IMG/VR virus record: IMGVR_UViG_3300029779_000011
Origin: a virus
Direction: 5' to 3' (one strand)
Length of the DNA stretch: 40,862 bases
Shown here: one piece after another, positions 823 through 40,862 of the stretch
How positions within the stretch are numbered: the first letter of the stretch is position 1
How the letters are laid out: each line of letters starts with the position of its first letter
Translations under genes and position numbers: made by a program
Notes under the pieces: generated by a model
What the model saw: the letters and a program-made list of their open reading frames with translations, nothing else
What the model was told of the DNA's origin: nothing
The model's database searches: none

Positions 823-1153
823 GCAGCCCGAGCAGGAATGAGATTATTGCAATCACTAGGTCGTGGATTCGATTAGCCTTTGTGGACTTCTTACGCTGAT
901 CAATATACGCCAAGTAGTCCTTCCCACGTTCTTCTATTCCAATTGCGCAGGACGTGCCAAACGATAACACAGGGACACCATCTTTGCTGGGGATTGGGTG
1001 CAGATTCGCAAGTCCAAAATGTTTCAGCCTATTTGCGGTCTGGAAAATATCATCCGTCGCAAATATTCTGCTATCTGCCAACGCTTTAAGCATTTTTCTT
1101 TCGTCTTTGCTCAACTCGATTTCCGAAAACGGAAGGTTGCTTGCATCATCCAT
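764..1153 (-). CDS. hypothetical protein with C-terminal TM helix, co-transcribed with the repressor
   Basis: ORF track. The start overlaps the repressor stop (ATGGATGA coupling). The C-terminal hydrophobic stretch is LVIAIISFLLGLL. Confidence 0.7.
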   Translation of the reverse strand: MDDASNLPFSEIELSKDERKMLKALADSRIFATDDIFQTANRLKHFGLANLHPIPSKDGVPVLSFGTSCAIGIEERGKDYLAYIDQRKKSTKANRIHDLVIAIISFLLGLLTSEHFWNFLNKCLSGFED

Positions 1154-1508
1154 TCTGCTTTCTCCGGTTCTTTAGCATACGTGCCATTTCGAGCAAATCA
1201 CGGCGCTCACTCTTATCCGCAGAACTCCAAATTTCACGGAGTTCTGCGGTTTCGCTATCTTCAACCTCGTCCTTCGGGATGGGGTCTTTTTTTATGCCCG
1301 CAGACGGGTCATCGGTTTCGCCCATCAGCTCCTTGACGGAAACACCGAACAGGTCAGTAAGTTTGACCTGCGTCGTTGCAGATGGCATCTTACCTTTTTT
1401 CCACCCATTCGCGGCAGCATTAGAAAGCCCTATTTTTTTCGCGGCACCGGATTCACTCAAGTTGTGTAACGCGCAAAGTTTGACATAGTTTTCGTAAAAA
1501 GCACTCAT
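1146..1508 (-). CDS. XRE-family HTH repressor (CI-like)
   Basis: N-terminal HTH pattern (SESGAAKKIGLSNAAANGWKKGKMP) with an acidic linker. Divergent from the early genes. Confidence 0.85.
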   Translation of the reverse strand: MSAFYENYVKLCALHNLSESGAAKKIGLSNAAANGWKKGKMPSATTQVKLTDLFGVSVKELMGETDDPSAGIKKDPIPKDEVEDSETAELREIWSSADKSERRDLLEMARMLKNRRKQNG

Positions 1509-1546
1509 TTTCAGTCTACCATTTTGTGCAAAACGCAGAAAGCTTA

Positions 1547-1557
1547 AAAAGTTAACA
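1547..1557 (+). promoter_or_regulatory. operator-like motif AAAAGTTAACA, copy 1
   Basis: An 11-mer containing the GTTAAC palindrome, 8 nt upstream of the -35 of the 1565 promoter. It recurs at 1608 and, inverted, at 1694. Confidence 0.45.
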
Positions 1558-1564
1558 CATCCTA

Positions 1565-1593
1565 TTGACTTCTAACTTTTCTAGCTGTATACT
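1565..1593 (+). promoter_or_regulatory. rightward promoter TTGACT-17-TATACT
   Basis: Near-consensus hexamers with 17-nt spacing, read directly. Confidence 0.65.
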
Positions 1594-1607
1594 GTGTTTA
1601 CGGTTGA

Positions 1608-1618
1608 AAAAGTTAACA
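1608..1618 (+). promoter_or_regulatory. operator-like motif AAAAGTTAACA, copy 2
   Basis: Exact second copy, just downstream of the predicted start of the 1565 promoter. Confidence 0.45.
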
Positions 1619-1679
1619 AAAAACCTGACCCCAGCAAAATAGCTCGTGTCAAAAAGTCTGTTATGTCTTTCGCACTTTC

Positions 1680-1708
1680 ATAATAGCACACATTGTTAAC
1701 TTTTGCAA
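1680..1708 (-). promoter_or_regulatory. leftward promoter TTGCAA-17-TATTAT
   Basis: Hexamers on the minus strand facing the repressor gene. Operator copy 3 lies in its spacer. Confidence 0.5.
1694..1704 (-). promoter_or_regulatory. operator-like motif, copy 3 (inverted)
   Basis: Plus-strand TGTTAACTTTT is the reverse complement of AAAAGTTAACA. Confidence 0.45.
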
Positions 1709-1719
1709 CCTGCAAAACC

Positions 1720-2070
1720 AAAAAAGTTGGCTGCGGCGTAAAGAAAAGCCGCCCGTGGTTCGTTCACGAGCGGTTTTCCCCAGAGTTGTTTACCAGAACG
1801 CGCTGCATCGCTAGACCCCGGCAGCACACTTGGGAATGGCTTACTTGCCTGCCGATGGCATACACCCTTTTTACGCGGTCGGTTTCGCTTGTATGCCTGC
1901 CTGATACTGGCGAACGCAAAACGAACTTACGCTTCTATGACGCGCCGCTCACTTTGGCAGTTCTGACGCTGCCCCTTGCCCTAACGCATTACGCCGTTTC
2001 TTTGGTCTGGAACTGGCAAGTTCAAAAGTTTGGTCATGTAAACCACCTCCCGAATTTACCTAAAAGGGCT
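1720..2070 (-). ncRNA. candidate structured RNA transcribed from the 2077..2106 promoter (boundaries approximate)
   Basis: GC-rich segment without a convincing ORF. Several 5-8 bp hairpins are listed in the findings. A strong promoter lies at one end, and a weak hairpin plus T6 near 1725-1757 at the other. Confidence 0.3.
1981..2037 (-). CDS. 18-codon ORF MTKLLNLPVPDQRNGVMR
   Basis: GGGAGGTGG sits 5 nt upstream of the ATG and about 35 nt downstream of the TTGACT-18-TATACT promoter. Too short to judge whether it is a leader peptide or a remnant. Confidence 0.3.
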   Translation of the reverse strand: MTKLLNLPVPDQRNGVMR

Positions 2071-2084
2071 AATGGCAGTATAGC
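2055..2084 (+). promoter_or_regulatory. weak rightward promoter TTTACC-18-TATAGC
   Basis: Overlaps back-to-back with the leftward -10. It would give a short leader for the Cro-like gene. Confidence 0.3.
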
Positions 2085-2106
2085 ACGTCTGGGGCGTTGC
2101 AGTCAA
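2077..2106 (-). promoter_or_regulatory. leftward promoter TTGACT-18-TATACT
   Basis: Minus strand reads tttgTTGACTgcaacgccccagacgtgcTATACTgcc. The hexamers are the same as in the 1565 promoter. Confidence 0.6.
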
Positions 2107-2135
2107 CAAATTAAACAGACAAGGAGGAGACGATA

Positions 2136-2333
2136 TTGCCGGAAAAATGGACAGGTGACCTGATCGGGAAGATGCACAACAGCAAGGTCACATACGACGA
2201 AGTGGCAGCTGAGTTTGGCTGCACAAAGACATATGTTTCGATGATTCTGAACGGCAGACGGAAGCCGCCGAATGCAAGAAAGCGGATGGAAGAAGCTGTT
2301 GCGGCAGTCATCCGCCGGAAAAAGGAGGGGTAA
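2136..2333 (+). CDS. Cro-like HTH regulator, 65 aa
   Basis: TTG start behind AAGGAGGAG. HTH_3-type pattern VAAEFGCTKTYVSMILNGRRKP. Confidence 0.7.
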   Translation: MPEKWTGDLIGKMHNSKVTYDEVAAEFGCTKTYVSMILNGRRKPPNARKRMEEAVAAVIRRKKEG

Positions 2334-15811: not shown

Positions 15812-17170
15812 ATGAAAACATATCAGGATTTTTTAGAGGTTGCGGAAAAGTCTGACCGGGAACGGATGGAATTTATTTTGTCCGCGATAAATAATCACAA
15901 AGACTCGGATTTATACAAACAGGCGGTTATTGCGAAGGAGTATGACGCGCACCGGAATGTGACAATTGCCAATTTTCAAAAGCTGCTTTATACACTCAAC
16001 GGGAAAGTCATTCCGGACAACTACAGTCCGAACTATAAGCTTCGGAGCAATTTCTTTGCAAATTTCATCACGCAGGAAACGCAGTATTTGCTTGGAAACG
16101 GCGTGACACTGAAAAAAGAGGAAAACAAAGCGAAGTTGGGTGCTGGGTTTGACACACGGCTCCAAGACGCAGCACACGACGCGCTTGTCGGCGGCGTTTC
16201 CTATGGTTTCTGGAATCTCGATCACCTTGAAGTGTTTGATGTGACAGAATTTGTTCCGCTTCTGGATGAGGAAAACGGAGCACTTCGGTCGGGCATTCGT
16301 TTCTGGCAAGTATGCACAAGCAAGCCGCTGCGTGCTACTCTCTTTGAGCCTGACGGATTTACACAGTACATCCGACGGAGCGGGGAAGAAATGATGATTT
16401 TGGAGCCGAAGCGCGGCTATGTGGCTGTGGAAGCGACTTCTGAGATTGACGGGACTGAACTTCTGGCGTATCAGAATTATCCGGGCTTCCCTATTATTCC
16501 CATGTACGGGAACCGCGCAAAGCAGTCTGAACTGGTCGGACAGCGCGAGGCGATTGACTGCTACGATTTGATCAAATCCGGCTTTGCAAATACGGTTGAT
16601 GATGCCTCCGTTATTTACTGGACGATTTCCAATGCCGGTGGCATGGACGAGATCGATATGGCACGGTTCAAAGAGTCCATGCGGCGAATTGGCGTAGGTC
16701 TTGTGGACGATGACGGCGCGAAGGCGGAGGCTCATACGCTCACAATCCCGGTTGAAGCTCGGGAAGCGCTTCTTTCCAGAATCAGCGACGATCTGTACCG
16801 AGATTTTCAGATGTTGGACGTTACAAAACTGCAAGGCGGGCAGAAAACAGCGACGGAGATCAATGCGGCATATCAGTCGATGGATAACAAGGTCGATCAA
16901 TTCGAATACTGCGTAATTGATTTCTTACAGGCGCTTTTCAAAATCGTTGGGATTGAGGATGAGCCATCTTTTACTCGCTCTAAGGTAACAAATCAGCTGG
17001 AACAAACGCAGATGGTGCTTCTTGCGGCAAACTACCTCGATGATGAGACAATTTTGAACAAGCTCCCGTGGCTGACGCAAGAAGAAGCTTCCGAAATCCT
17101 GAAAAGAAAAGCGGCAGAGGATATTGAGCGCAGCTTCGAGCCGCCGGAGATGGTGAACGATGAGACCTGA
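15812..17170 (+). CDS. portal protein (SPP1 gp6-like)
   Basis: 452 aa, directly after terL. The N-terminal region is typical of SPP1-type portals. Confidence 0.88.
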   Translation: MKTYQDFLEVAEKSDRERMEFILSAINNHKDSDLYKQAVIAKEYDAHRNVTIANFQKLLYTLNGKVIPDNYSPNYKLRSNFFANFITQETQYLLGNGVTLKKEENKAKLGAGFDTRLQDAAHDALVGGVSYGFWNLDHLEVFDVTEFVPLLDEENGALRSGIRFWQVCTSKPLRATLFEPDGFTQYIRRSGEEMMILEPKRGYVAVEATSEIDGTELLAYQNYPGFPIIPMYGNRAKQSELVGQREAIDCYDLIKSGFANTVDDASVIYWTISNAGGMDEIDMARFKESMRRIGVGLVDDDGAKAEAHTLTIPVEAREALLSRISDDLYRDFQMLDVTKLQGGQKTATEINAAYQSMDNKVDQFEYCVIDFLQALFKIVGIEDEPSFTRSKVTNQLEQTQMVLLAANYLDDETILNKLPWLTQEEASEILKRKAAEDIERSFEPPEMVNDET

Positions 17171-18869
17171 TAAGGGATACGACCTCACCGAAAAAGAGTT
17201 AAAGGCGCTCGAAAAGCGGATATACGATTCTTACAAAGAAGCGTATGACGGTCTGACGGACATCATTAAGGAGTATTTCGCAAAGTTCGCAGACCGTGAC
17301 GAAGCCGAAAAGGCACGGCTGGACGCTGGCGATATCACCGAGGAACAATACAAGCAATGGCGGCTTGCGCAGATCGGGCGTGGAAAGCGCTTTGAGGCGC
17401 TACGGGATAAGGTCGCAGAGCGCATGACAAATGCAAACGCTGCTGCTGTTGCGTATGTCAACGATGCAACGCCGGGAATTTACAGTTTGAATCGGAATTT
17501 CGCGGCGTACACCATTGAACAAGTGACCGGCGATGTCGGATTTGACTTATGGGACGAACAGACTGTAAAGCGCCTAATTGTGGAACAGCCGGAGCTTATG
17601 CCGTATTACCCGCCGAAAAGAGCGTTAAAGCGCGGAATTGATCTTGCATGGGGCAAAAAGCAGATCACAGCCAGCGTCACAAGCTCCATTTTGCAGGGCA
17701 AGAGCATTAAGCACATGGCAGATGATCTACAATCCAGAATTGTCACCATGAACCGCGATTCCGCTATCCGGACAGCTCGAACGGCAGTCACGGGTGCGCA
17801 GAACGCCGGACGGATGGATTCTTATTTTGCGGCTGAAAAGATGGGGATTAAATGCCGCAAAGAGTGGATGGCGACGCTGGACGGAAGAACGCGCCATTCT
17901 CACGCGATGCTCGATGGTGAAGTCGTGGATAACGACAAGAAGTTTTCTAATGGTTGCCGATTCCCGGGAGACCCGCAAGGCAGACCGGAAGAAATATACA
18001 ACTGCCGCTGTACGTTGGTATCTGTGATAGAGGGAATTGGCACTTCCAGAGGACAGCGCCGAGCCAGAAATCCTGAGACAGGGCAAAATGAGCTTATTGA
18101 AAATATGACATACGCAGAGTGGGCGGGGTGGAAAAAGCGTGTGAAAAAGCCTAATTTTGCCCCTGCGGGAACGATCGATGAAGCGGAAAAATACGCGGAA
18201 ATGTTCGTTGAAAGTTACAAGAGCAAATATACAGGGAAAGTTGATTATCGTGGAATCGACATCGCACATGCAAATGAAATGAACAGGGCGTTGACAGAAG
18301 TTCTTGGCGAGTATGAAGTTGACTATAAACTTCGGAATATAACTCCGTTTAATACAAGAGAAAAACGCTTCAAAGATACAACGGCGGAAGCGGCGTATCA
18401 ATGGGGAACCGGAGATTTGTTCTTCAACAAAAAATACCTTAAAAATGCAAAAGCGATGGCAGACCACATAAAGGAATACACAGATTTGCTTAATCAGGTA
18501 TTACCAAACATTGATGTGGCAATGGAGCAAACCAAGAAAAAAACGGGCATAGCGGCAGAGCTTCAAATGCGTTATCTTAAAGCGCTAAAGAAAACGGGCA
18601 GGACAAATGTTAGCAAACCTGATGCCTATGGCTCAATGGTTCACGAGCTAGGGCATTACTTAGACGATAGGTTGTTCACAAAAGCTGTGAAAGAATCTGG
18701 GTTCAATATGGCGAGCAGTTTTTCAAAATATGCCGAAAATGTTTCCGCATACGCTACAAGCAACAGGCAAGAATACGTTGCAGAGAGCTTCACGGCATAT
18801 TGGTTTGGGGAAACAAGCGAGTTAGACCCAGAACTTGTGAAAATCTTTGAAAGGCTTAAGAAAAAATGA
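17160..18869 (+). CDS. minor head protein (SPP1 gp7 / Mu F-like) fused to a C-terminal HExxH zincin-like domain
   Basis: MuF motif LDGRTRHSHAMLDGEVV...NCRCTL. HELGH lies at 18642-18656 and EYVAESF at 18771-18791. Confidence 0.85.
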   Translation: MRPDKGYDLTEKELKALEKRIYDSYKEAYDGLTDIIKEYFAKFADRDEAEKARLDAGDITEEQYKQWRLAQIGRGKRFEALRDKVAERMTNANAAAVAYVNDATPGIYSLNRNFAAYTIEQVTGDVGFDLWDEQTVKRLIVEQPELMPYYPPKRALKRGIDLAWGKKQITASVTSSILQGKSIKHMADDLQSRIVTMNRDSAIRTARTAVTGAQNAGRMDSYFAAEKMGIKCRKEWMATLDGRTRHSHAMLDGEVVDNDKKFSNGCRFPGDPQGRPEEIYNCRCTLVSVIEGIGTSRGQRRARNPETGQNELIENMTYAEWAGWKKRVKKPNFAPAGTIDEAEKYAEMFVESYKSKYTGKVDYRGIDIAHANEMNRALTEVLGEYEVDYKLRNITPFNTREKRFKDTTAEAAYQWGTGDLFFNKKYLKNAKAMADHIKEYTDLLNQVLPNIDVAMEQTKKKTGIAAELQMRYLKALKKTGRTNVSKPDAYGSMVHELGHYLDDRLFTKAVKESGFNMASSFSKYAENVSAYATSNRQEYVAESFTAYWFGETSELDPELVKIFERLKKK

Positions 18870-38622: not shown

Positions 38623-38643
38623 TATGCTACATCGTATGTTACA
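38623..38643 (+). repeat. arm-type repeat pair TATGCTACA-tcg-TATGTTACA (right of the att core)
   Basis: Mirror-ordered copy of 38373..38393. Overlaps the integrase stop codon. Confidence 0.6.
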
Positions 38644-39772
38644 AACTGCCGGTTATGGCAGGGGACTCCCTCGTTTTTTCGTCCCCTTGCAGCTGGTTTA
38701 CCGCGTCTACCATCCCACGCATATCTGGATGAACATATCTCTGCGTCGTCGTTATTTTTGTGTGTCGCATGATCTCTTTGATAGTAAACAAGTCTATGTT
38801 TTTTATGGCAAGCGCTGTGGCGGTTGTATGGCGGCACGAGTACGGCGGGAGTTTCCGCGCACCGGCTAGTTCCAAGCACTCATAGTATCGCTTGTAAAAG
38901 TTGTCTTTGTTTATGCAGCAGACGTTCCCGACTTTGGACTTACTTTCTTCACAGAGTTCACGCAGCACGGGTGCGACGAAGTCTGGGAAGACCATAGGCG
39001 TTTCTTTCCGCTTCTTTGTTTTTATGCCGCCCCGGACGATCTCGTTTTTCTCAAAGTCAATCATATCCTTCTTGAGCTTCAGCAATTCTCCCGGCATCAT
39101 GCCTGTATAGATCATCGTGAGGATAAAACCGACAAAATGATCTTTTGCATACGCTTCCCATAGTTTTTTGACGTCGGCGTCGGTAAACGGCTCCGGCGAT
39201 TTTTCGTCCAGTTCCGGGAGCTTAATATATTCCGCGAGATTGACAGTGGTCTGTTTTTCAGCAATCGCGAGGTTATAGCAGTGTGAAAGGACTGTTTTCA
39301 TGTCCTTCCGCGTGTAATAGGTGCTGGCATTGCGGTCGACAACATCCTGTATCTGTGAGATGGTGAGCGTGTCAATTTCGCAGTCGGCGAGCTCCTTCAT
39401 GCGCTCGAAAGCTTTTTCCGCTGCCCCCTGCCGGTTCGCCGACAAGGACAGGTAATCTCCGCGCAGATACGTCTTGTAGTATGCTCTGAGTGTAGGGCTT
39501 CGCCGCTCTTCTTTCGGCGGGTTGGCGGCATATTGGAGCGCGGCACGCTTTGACGTAAAGCCTCCCTTTGTCTTCATCTTTTGATGGAGCTTGTCGTTTT
39601 CGTCGAGGTACGTCTTTTCAGTCCACCTGGCAGTCCACGTTTTCCCACGCTGGTAGGCGTTTCCTTGCCCGTTCCCGCGTGTCCGGTTTCGATGCGCTTG
39701 CTGCTGTTTCCCACACCAGCAGCAGAACGCCGAGCCGTCAGGAATTTCTTTTTTACACTTGATGCACTCCAT
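38639..39772 (-). CDS. int: tyrosine integrase with N-terminal zinc-ribbon
   Basis: C-terminal RHTTATALA...HTKITTTQRYVH (R-H-R-Y catalytic pattern). N-terminal CIKC...CCWCG. Start chosen behind GGAGG; the track start is 39802. Confidence 0.9.
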   Translation of the reverse strand: MECIKCKKEIPDGSAFCCWCGKQQQAHRNRTRGNGQGNAYQRGKTWTARWTEKTYLDENDKLHQKMKTKGGFTSKRAALQYAANPPKEERRSPTLRAYYKTYLRGDYLSLSANRQGAAEKAFERMKELADCEIDTLTISQIQDVVDRNASTYYTRKDMKTVLSHCYNLAIAEKQTTVNLAEYIKLPELDEKSPEPFTDADVKKLWEAYAKDHFVGFILTMIYTGMMPGELLKLKKDMIDFEKNEIVRGGIKTKKRKETPMVFPDFVAPVLRELCEESKSKVGNVCCINKDNFYKRYYECLELAGARKLPPYSCRHTTATALAIKNIDLFTIKEIMRHTKITTTQRYVHPDMRGMVDAVNQLQGDEKTRESPAITGSL

Positions 39773-40328
39773 GTTTTCCTCCACGTTCTTTTCGAATTGC
39801 ATAGAAAGTAATTGCTGAAGCCAGCGCTGAACCTACAATCAGGGCGATGCACGCCCATGCAGCTACGGACAAATCTCCATCGCGAATGAGACCTGTGTTC
39901 CGAATTTGCGCATCCGTCACAAGGCAGGCAATTAGAGAAAAGGAGAGCAGCATACAAAACAGGGCGAGAACGTAACACATTGTATGTGTAGCCCTTATCT
40001 GTGCGCTCTGCGCGGCTGTTGTTGCCGCCAGCTTGGCGTTTTCGATCTCGACATGATGAATCTGCTCGGTCAGTTCTTCCGGGCTTTCTGCGGGTTTGAC
40101 AAGCCCGCACAACTCATCCAGCGACAGCCCGAGAACGCGGCATAGCGCGGCAGAATTGTACAGTTTCGGGTCTTGCTGTGTTCCTGCGCAGAGCTTCGTC
40201 ACAGCCGATCTGGAAACGCCGGATTCTTCAACAAGCCTATCGATGGTGTAATGCTGATCTTCCTTCGCCCGCTTTATGTTACTCTGATATGCAGAAAGAT
40301 ATGGGGCGAGTTCCTGAATCGCCGACAT
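39753..40328 (-). CDS. membrane-anchored XRE-family HTH regulator
   Basis: N-terminal HTH (YTIDRLVEESGVSRSAVTKLCAG) and two C-terminal TM helices (CYVLALFCMLLSFSLIACL and AAWACIALIVGSALASAITFY). Confidence 0.75.
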   Translation of the reverse strand: MSAIQELAPYLSAYQSNIKRAKEDQHYTIDRLVEESGVSRSAVTKLCAGTQQDPKLYNSAALCRVLGLSLDELCGLVKPAESPEELTEQIHHVEIENAKLAATTAAQSAQIRATHTMCYVLALFCMLLSFSLIACLVTDAQIRNTGLIRDGDLSVAAWACIALIVGSALASAITFYAIRKERGGKHGVHQV

Positions 40329-40624: not shown

Positions 40625-40807
40625 ATGCAGAGCATCAATATTCGCTTTGAAAACGGGAAAGTAAACATCATCGTAGACGGGGCGCTTTTCAAAGACGTCC
40701 ACAGTCTGAGCCTGGACTACATCAAGGGCGCACCTATGCTCTTTGCTTGCGTCTCAGATGTAGGCGAGACACGGGAGAAGTGGAACCAATGCCCGCTGCC
40801 GAACTGA
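40625..40807 (+). CDS. hypothetical protein, 60 aa, spanning into the terminal repeat
   Basis: ATG behind GGAGG (MQSINIRFENGKVNIIVDG...). The antisense 40493..40702 ORF is less convincing. Confidence 0.5.
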   Translation: MQSINIRFENGKVNIIVDGALFKDVHSLSLDYIKGAPMLFACVSDVGETREKWNQCPLPN

Positions 40808-40862
40808 GTCACTTGATTGGCCACGAGTTACCGCAGTTCTGGCAAAGGCAGATCTTCTGGTT
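40740..40862. repeat. terminal direct repeat copy 2 (identical to 1..123)
   Basis: Read directly. Consistent with circular assembly or terminal redundancy. Confidence 0.97.

Follow-up and report, generated by a model that had tools for sequence, protein, structure and literature searches.

A FuFi-1 RNA gene and a compact predicted switch share the wide repressor-Cro interval of a phage genome

Introduction

In coliphage 186, the promoters pR and pL stand face to face with their starts 62 bp apart and are subject to transcriptional interference. Phage lambda makes a short antisense RNA of 77 nt, OOP, which has its own promoter and terminator and is convergent with the P_R transcript. On the Enterococcus faecalis plasmid pCF10, the promoters P_Q and P_X of the prgQ/prgX system converge as well, and in Bacillus subtilis SR1/SR1P and Staphylococcus aureus RNAIII/hld a small translated frame and a structured regulatory RNA are combined in one transcript. 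Here we compare with these systems the interval between the repressor gene and the Cro-like gene of the virus record IMGVR_UViG_3300029779_000011, a stretch of 40,862 nt which was analyzed as a whole and is called the window in the following. The interval contains a copy of the structured RNA FuFi-1 (RF02986) next to a compact predicted switch.

FuFi-1 was described by Weinberg et al. (2017; PMC5737381), for whom its complexity suggests a “sophisticated biochemical function”; no function was given. The RNA has a 3′ Rho-independent terminator, is rarely found in 5′ untranslated regions (UTRs), and self-cleavage was not seen (PMC5737381). A sequence-only reading of the window had interpreted the same interval as one oversized genetic switch, in which a long sense/antisense overlap between facing promoters may take the place of a compact operator. 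Our analysis resolves the gap into a compact switch (1545-1710) and a separate FuFi-1 RNA gene. Promoters, transcription starts and termination sites are all predictions from sequence.

Results

The Gap Between Repressor and Cro-Like Gene Contains a FuFi-1 RNA Gene

The distance of 627 bp between the two regulatory genes (1509-2135), which had attracted attention initially, is confirmed by the gene starts at 1508 (minus strand) and 2136 (a TTG codon). The elements of the gap and the two bordering genes are the following:

1146-1508, minus strand: CI-like repressor of 120 aa, XRE/HTH_3 type without S24 peptidase domain (Pfam HTH_3, E 1.4e-5; PHROG 8 / 3037, transcriptional regulator/repressor)
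1547-1557, plus strand: operator copy 1 (AAAAGTTAACA, exact 11-mer), immediately 5′ of the -35 of the rightward promoter
1565-1593, plus strand: predicted rightward early promoter (lytic, P_R-like), TTGACT-17-TATACT (promoter scan, 10/12 matches)
1573-1580, plus strand: half-site TAACTTTT in the spacer of the rightward promoter
1608-1618, plus strand: operator copy 2 (exact 11-mer), at about +8 to +18 of the rightward transcript
1680-1708, minus strand: predicted leftward repressor promoter (P_RM-like), TTGCAA-17-TGcTATTAT (promoter scan, 9/12 with TG)
1694-1704, minus strand: operator copy 3 (exact 11-mer), inside the spacer of the 1708-1680 promoter
1743-1995, minus strand: FuFi-1 RNA core (Rfam RF02986; cmscan)
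1749-1773, minus strand: intrinsic terminator of FuFi-1, 9-bp stem with 7 G-C pairs and the tail CUUUUCUUU (terminator scan)
1981-2037, minus strand: short open reading frame (mini-ORF) of 18 codons, MTKLLNLPVPDQRNGVMR, followed by a stop codon 14 nt inside the Rfam core
2043-2050, minus strand: Shine-Dalgarno sequence GGAGGTGG, GGAGG 8 nt before the ATG (direct sequence reading; kept in all leaders)
2077-2106, minus strand: predicted promoter of the FuFi-1 unit, TTGACT-18-TGcTATACT (promoter scan, 10/12 with TG extension)
2136-2333, plus strand: Cro-like protein of 65 aa, small and of helix-turn-helix (HTH) type, heading the early transcript in the lineage of the window (HTH_3, HTH_31, PHROG 1468)

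FuFi-1 was the sole Rfam match in the cmscan of the window, and its 95.1 bits (E 2e-19) clearly exceed the gathering score, which is 59.6. The match extends over the whole model (1-175 of 175) and was obtained for the minus strand alone, and the RNA is a member of a catalogued Rfam family; a tRNA and tmRNA scan of the window found none. The last hairpin of the match is the terminator at 1773-1749, which is weaker on the plus strand (one mismatch, four U), and the promoter at 2106-2077 is located about 75 nt upstream of the core. Promoter, ribosome-binding site, mini-ORF, core and terminator thus add up to an entire transcription unit, some 330 nt long and located on the strand of the repressor. 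The promoter at 2106-2077 had been assigned to the switch; it is predicted instead to drive this discrete RNA gene (95 bits), whose own terminator precedes the switch.

The unpaired elements CAUAGAA, UGCA and GGUAAACAA are all present in the copy of the window according to cmscan, and also in the alignment of its relatives. In our own alignment of 17 diverse cores, including that of the window, compensatory changes were found in 34 of 42 pairs. The core of the window is 253 nt long compared to 217-247 nt in close relatives, and its variable hairpin is enlarged by an insertion of about 85 nt. Within this insertion a 15-nt direct repeat (80% identical) was observed at 1839-1853 and 1887-1901, which suggests that the copy of the window grew by local duplication. 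Fold z-scores are modest (-1.9 for the whole transcript, -2.5 for the antisense) and therefore uninformative on their own.

With the published FuFi-1 representatives the copy of the window shares the full-length match, the conserved elements, the 3′ terminator, Bacillota hosts and a phage neighborhood. The published model begins after the leader, whereas the window and all relatives examined start with a promoter, a ribosome-binding site and the mini-ORF. Neither the conserved leader with its translated frame nor the constant antisense position within the early operon is mentioned in Weinberg et al. (2017; PMC5737381).

Three of the promoters proposed by the sequence-only reading (1565-1593 on the plus strand, 2106-2077 and 1708-1680 on the minus strand) were recovered by our promoter scan. 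A weak rightward promoter at 2055-2084 (TTTACC / TATAGC) failed the scan, as its -10 hexamer has no T at position 6. The scan returned 8 promoter-like sites in 4 kb compared to 3.8 ± 2.3 in shuffles, so that such counts are weak evidence alone; the three sites are considered validated because their positions are conserved in relatives.

A Compact Switch Is Conserved in Heteroimmune Relatives

Three sites and two promoters cluster at 1545-1710, which does not agree with one oversized switch replacing a compact operator. The repetition of AAAAGTTAACA described before was verified: the 11-mer occurs exactly three times in 40.9 kb (1547 and 1608 on the plus strand, 1694 on the minus strand), compared to a mean of 0.59 in shuffles, and none of 100 shuffles reached three. 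Copies 1 and 2 constitute a direct repeat with a spacing of 61 bp, and an 18-nt inverted repeat connects 1602-1619 with 1693-1710. The predicted lytic promoter (1565-1593) faces the predicted repressor promoter (1708-1680), and about 72 nt separate their inferred starts. An additional operator variant had been proposed to overlap position 2101. It differs from the 9-mer core by more than one mismatch, coincides with the -35 hexamer of the FuFi-1 promoter and was rejected as a fourth operator, as the same letters are found in relatives having different operators.

The interval 1509-1742 is identical in the related locus L143 and homologous in L135, whose repressor has the recognition helix GLSNAAANGWKKGK in common with that of the window and whose operator is of the same type. 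Members of the L137 group carry nearly the same FuFi-1 and the same C-terminal half of the repressor, combined with a different HTH (IDKSTISCWKARK), and other repeats (GTTTGCAA) occupy the operator places of the window. A third recognition helix and a third repeat (TTGTTATCA) were found in the Flavonifractor phage Chenonceau, a prophage which is induced from F. plautii within the OMM12 consortium (PMC10197239). The geometry of the sites is similar in the three lineages: the flanking sites are spaced by 61 bp in the window, 62 bp in the L137 group and 57 bp in Chenonceau, and the distance from the middle site to the inverted copy amounts to 73, 80, and 73 nt, respectively. The position of the rightward promoter is conserved in L143, L135, the L137 group and Chenonceau. 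In five window-like lineages, the promoter in sense orientation to the repressor lies 31-34 nt past the FuFi-1 terminator. The earlier assumption that the 11-mers behave as operators is thereby strengthened, since at the two positions flanking the rightward promoter the repeat changes together with the recognition helix in three lineages. Considered together, window, L137 group and Chenonceau show a compact, OR-like cluster of predicted operators.

The predicted lytic and repressor promoters, whose positions are conserved, have the convergent layout of 186/P2, and each transcript would cross the promoter of the other. The proteins of the window are probably unrelated XRE types with general HTH_3 matches, its promoters are predicted only, and the second convergent pair of the window, formed by the lytic and the FuFi-1 promoter, has no counterpart in 186/P2.

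The Cro-like protein matches HTH_3 with 22.1 bits, below the cut-off of 23, and matches HTH_31 too. We observed that this protein (MPEKWTG...SMILNG...) accompanies the FuFi-1 side of the locus and is perhaps no Cro with operator specificity.

The FuFi-1 Unit Is Placed Backwards in the Early Operon

Two sets of loci were picked independently. For the core-picked set, viral contigs were searched with a pattern from the 3′ part of the core and the Rfam model was run on 49 of the resulting records, 31 of which exceeded the cut-off (30 loci). For the mini-ORF-picked set, one genome per prokaryote species was searched with a pattern derived from the mini-ORF alone, which yielded 58 loci. About 39 of these are located in Bacillota or on contigs with the phage-type context of the window (Oscillospiraceae, Acutalibacteraceae, Ruminococcus, Lachnospiraceae, Cohnella and one contig binned as Holosporaceae, L183), and all of them have a ribosome-binding site and a start codon. 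The remaining matches, about 19 in other phyla, are without ribosome-binding site or core and correspond approximately to the chance number, thus serving as an internal control. In 17 of 19 scanned loci with a ribosome-binding site, FuFi-1 was detected above the cut-off directly downstream on the same strand. Cultured strains with mini-ORF and FuFi-1 signatures include Ruminococcoides intestinihominis CLA-AA-H171, Allofournierella massiliensis An912 and Cohnella cellulosilytica TISTR 1996, of which Cohnella was verified above the Rfam cut-off.

L160, L175, and L178 combine mini-ORF and ribosome-binding site with a GGTAAACAA box 160-175 nt downstream and may represent a variant of the RNA that has diverged and become shorter; the scan for FuFi-1 covered L160 and L178, neither of which reached the gathering score. 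In Allofournierella massiliensis An912 (L203, 3273-3824) two units of the mini-ORF/FuFi-1 type are arranged in tandem on the same strand, about 526 nt apart.

In almost every lineage the mini-ORF is preceded by a near-consensus promoter whose -10 hexamer ends 35-44 nt before it. That promoters face each other across a long sense/antisense overlap, as had been claimed for the window, proved to be a general property: a promoter on the 3′ side points into the FuFi-1 unit in 41 of 46 distinct loci compared to 21% of shuffles (cut-off: at least 10/12 matches, or 9 with TG extension). The next gene on the FuFi-1 strand encodes an XRE repressor in 19-22 of 28 viral loci. In the genome loci as well as in L130 and L134, a small cro-type HTH gene separates the opposing promoter from the FuFi-1 terminator, and beyond the FuFi-1 promoter the early genes continue, often with members of HTH_17 type; the early operon thus spans the FuFi-1 unit. 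Judged from this gene order and the predicted promoters, the unit is always placed backwards inside the early lytic operon.

In the window, the inferred starts of the rightward and the FuFi-1 promoter (~1600 and ~2070) are separated by about 470 bp, in agreement with the sequence-only reading, so that the locus contains two nested face-to-face promoter pairs (lytic/repressor and lytic/FuFi-1). Only 30 bp lie between the -35 hexamer of the FuFi-1 promoter and the start of the Cro-like gene, and no credible rightward promoter was found between the unit and this gene. The lytic transcript would therefore have to run about 540 nt from 1565-1593 to the Cro-like gene, and about 330 nt of this leader are antisense to the FuFi-1 unit. 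The long overlap which had been thought to act instead of a compact operator is thus real and conserved, but it adds to the operator and replaces nothing.

A parallel of this arrangement in lambda is OOP. Both OOP and FuFi-1 are small self-terminated RNA genes near cro/cII whose direction is opposite to that of the surrounding early rightward operon, and their RNAs are complementary to the lytic transcript. OOP is without a conserved tertiary-type fold and without an ORF, and overlaps the end of a coding region. FuFi-1, in contrast, measures 160-330 nt, is kept across heteroimmune phages and carries a mini-ORF which is probably translated.

No single protein partner was found beside the unit; the divergent neighbor encodes a small DNA-binding protein of varying family (HTH_3 or HTH_17). 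PADLOC detected no defense system among eight flanking proteins. In L153, L154, L161, L163, L168, L172, and L195, tRNA genes were observed about 0.4 to 5 kb from the FuFi-1 unit; these loci are probably prophage attachment regions.

A Conserved Mini-ORF Precedes the RNA Core

The mini-ORF motif M-T-[KQN]-L-L-x-L-P-[VA]-P is kept in all 31 core-picked FuFi-1 loci (30 relatives and the window), and each of the 46 distinct loci compared for the opposing promoter has the mini-ORF. Start codons are ATG, TTG or GTG, preceded by the ribosome-binding site GGAG(G)TGG. The peptide comprises 12-36 residues in total, and the tail after the ten-residue motif is free. Among 58 distinct leaders, 17 have exactly 12 codons; in this class codons 11 and 12 are freely variable, and codon 13 is TAA (8), TGA (7) or TAG (2), never TGG. 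For Pro8, all four third bases are used. The stop-codon pattern and the third-base use at Pro8 argue, at the level of codons, that the mini-ORF is translated. Codons 2, 4, 5, and 9 are almost invariant, which hints at an additional constraint on the RNA.

Like FuFi-1, pCF10 combines convergent promoters with a short ORF 5′ of a structured RNA that ends at an internal terminator, and its sense and antisense RNAs bear on a decision controlled by a repressor. The prgQ peptide, however, is a secreted hydrophobic pheromone inhibitor with an active C-terminal part, whereas in the FuFi-1 mini-ORF the N-terminal ten residues are conserved and the tail (2-27 residues) is free. Moreover, PrgX is a plasmid-encoded regulator of the RRNPP type and that of the window a phage-encoded XRE protein. 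SR1/SR1P and RNAIII/hld resemble the unit in uniting a small translated frame and a structured regulatory RNA, without any sequence or structural relation to FuFi-1.

Two further interpretations of the leader were considered. The minimum-free-energy fold suggested a leader hairpin hiding the ribosome-binding site, and a GGCAA/UUGCC helix occurs in nearly all leaders. Its length of 6.53 compares with 6.38 ± 0.19 after pairing the 5′ parts with the ORFs of other sequences; covariation is not beyond chance, RNAalifold found no consensus structure on the leaders, and the hairpin is regarded as unproven. A type I toxin-antitoxin system was rejected: MTKLLNLPVPDQRNGVMR is without transmembrane stretch, the tail is variable, and the peptide has only 12 residues in many lineages.

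The Unit Is Exchangeable Among Related Phages

The nearest virus record, G001, has 43% of the sampled words in common with the window; its immunity region is a different one, spans about 200 bp and is without FuFi-1. Chenonceau shares the promoter block and the Cro-like gene with the window; its FuFi-1 slot is occupied by a 39-codon gene (MKNNFRTSAEIASLAGRLMHHWCKEIRSLAAIALANRRK; L006 3196-3315, ON453904 5228-5347) which has a TTGACT-18-TATACT promoter, ends at a terminator of its own and likewise runs against the early transcript. No FuFi-1 match was obtained in Chenonceau even at E up to 1, and the blastn similarity stems from the flanking switch and the Cro-like gene. Missing in G001 and replaced in Chenonceau, FuFi-1 is thus an exchangeable cassette.

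Genome Context

An exact 123-bp direct terminal repeat (1-123 and 40740-40862) was observed, and the window is therefore a complete, circularly closed phage genome of 40,739 bp, in which the integrase arm (38639-40328) adjoins the repressor arm. Besides an integrase, the genome encodes a second XRE regulator, a terminase, a portal protein and a MuF-like protein. The second XRE/HTH_3 protein (191 aa, 39753-40328, minus strand) overlaps the start of the integrase gene (38639-39802). In the MuF-like minor head protein (17160-18869, plus strand), a C-terminal ATLF (zincin-like) match remains sub-threshold (E 1.8e-4, 21.7 bits compared to a cut-off of 27.4). A small Zn-ribbon ORF (70-318) likewise has a sub-threshold Ogr_Delta match only.

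Discussion

We favor the reading that a compact switch is accompanied by a self-contained FuFi-1 unit which opposes the lytic transcript, and assign a probability of roughly 0.6 to this statement as a whole. The anatomy of switch and unit can be considered highly probable; the regulatory consequence of the unit is put forward tentatively, with the odds slightly against it. In the lysogen, the XRE repressor would bind the three AAAAGTTAACA sites, shut the lytic promoter and limit its own synthesis. FuFi-1 RNA would then be made unopposed from its operator-free promoter. After failure of the repressor, polymerases starting from the lytic promoter would collide head-on with those transcribing FuFi-1, and the lytic leader could pair with the complementary FuFi-1 RNA, which would be abundant and structured. 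Collision or pairing would delay the expression of the Cro-like and later early genes or raise the threshold for it. From the conserved fold, the invariant unpaired bases and the conserved translated leader we infer that the RNA also acts through its shape, beyond antisense. A more specific version is improbable in our estimation, namely that FuFi-1 is a translation-coupled sensor with the ten-codon leader M-T-K-L-L-x-L-P-x-P as regulatory or arrest peptide; the ribosome, ending inside or just before the first RNA helix, would then remodel the FuFi-1 fold.

Several observations weigh against the favored reading. A purely antisense role needs neither a conserved fold nor conserved unpaired bases, and the antisense or interference effect may be incidental to another function. 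Helix P1 of the window is imperfect, with 4 of 7 pairs in the Rfam register. Chenonceau, too, has operator copy 3 within the repressor-promoter spacer although its recognition helix differs, which makes the assignment of this copy to the repressor of the window less secure. Across heteroimmune relatives the Cro-like protein retains 57-87% identity, and its HTH does not vary with the operators; because it is conserved while the operators differ, it may not be a classical Cro. Finally, the unit is dispensable, as seen in G001, and replaceable by a protein gene, as seen in Chenonceau, which fits an accessory cassette equally well.

The latter possibility, an accessory (“moron”) RNA expressed as cargo in lysogeny from a permissive slot beside the immunity region, acting in trans on the host or other phages and opposing the lytic transcript only as a by-product of insulation, is unlikely in our judgment. 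As in a moron, the unit is self-contained with its own promoter and terminator and is absent or replaced among related phages: the nearest relative G001 does without it, and in Chenonceau its place is taken by an unrelated gene of 39 codons, which likewise has a terminator and a promoter of similar sequence. Furthermore, the FuFi-1 promoter has no operator, and sequence and fold of the core are kept across heteroimmune phages, as is expected of a trans-acting partner. Morons usually scatter across several slots. The position of FuFi-1, by contrast, is fixed in antisense in the early operon beside repressor and cro in both independently picked sets of loci, and no defense-system protein adjoins it. 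The initial interpretation of the whole 470-bp interval as a switch, with a lysogenic promoter at 2106 and control by long overlap instead of operators, is very hard to maintain. Two near-consensus promoters with identical hexamers do face each other, but the interval is a catalogued structured RNA with covariation, and the leftward transcript ends at the strong predicted terminator (1773-1749), at a distance of 240 nt from the repressor gene. A separate promoter-like site is available to the repressor at 1708-1680, and the compact operator/promoter cluster keeps its geometry in relatives.

Mini-ORF, RNA and terminator might alternatively form a leader or attenuator of the repressor gene, which senses translation and sets repressor synthesis by conditional read-through. 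The unit is upstream of and co-directional with the XRE repressor gene in 19-22 of 28 viral loci, and where the leader is short, the mini-ORF terminates within the first core helix or immediately 5′ of it, so that the ribosome would remodel this helix. In addition, pairing is possible in the window between the 3′ strand of P1 (GUGAGCGG) and the 5′ terminator arm (CCGCUCGU). This antiterminator pairing, which the Rfam consensus also allows, does not exist in the subtypes L119, L126, and L128 and was rejected as a general mechanism. Window-like lineages possess a separate repressor promoter past the terminator, many lineages have a convergent cro between unit and repressor, where read-through would be antisense to cro, and FuFi-1 is rarely located in 5′ UTRs (Weinberg et al., 2017; PMC5737381). 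Altogether, attenuation appears quite improbable. A protein gene on the plus strand is scarcely credible. A frame of 156 codons (1693-2163) is stop-free across the whole FuFi-1 unit and open across it in the window and L143, but it is not preceded by a ribosome-binding site, starts with a TTG located within an operator, and gave no Pfam match; close relatives differ by 29 and 7 nt in length, and the frame is not kept. Because the region is G+C-rich, long spurious frames are likely. Several distant FuFi-1 subtypes are likewise stop-free on the antisense strand, and the 1693-2163 frame is judged spurious.

For annotation, the favored reading of a compact switch beside a FuFi-1 unit means that “oversized” repressor-cro gaps in these phages consist of an RNA gene and a normal switch. 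Small hypothetical genes called across such gaps may be artefacts; Chenonceau has several annotated across or around its switch. FuFi-1 itself is now placed as a lysogeny-side unit which lies backwards in the early lytic operon of gut Clostridia phages and always starts with a mini-ORF, and an orphan motif becomes open to simple genetic tests of induction and lysogenization. If it were indeed a translation-coupled sensor, FuFi-1 would be an RNA-based input of the host translational state to the lysis-lysogeny decision, alongside the protein repressor.

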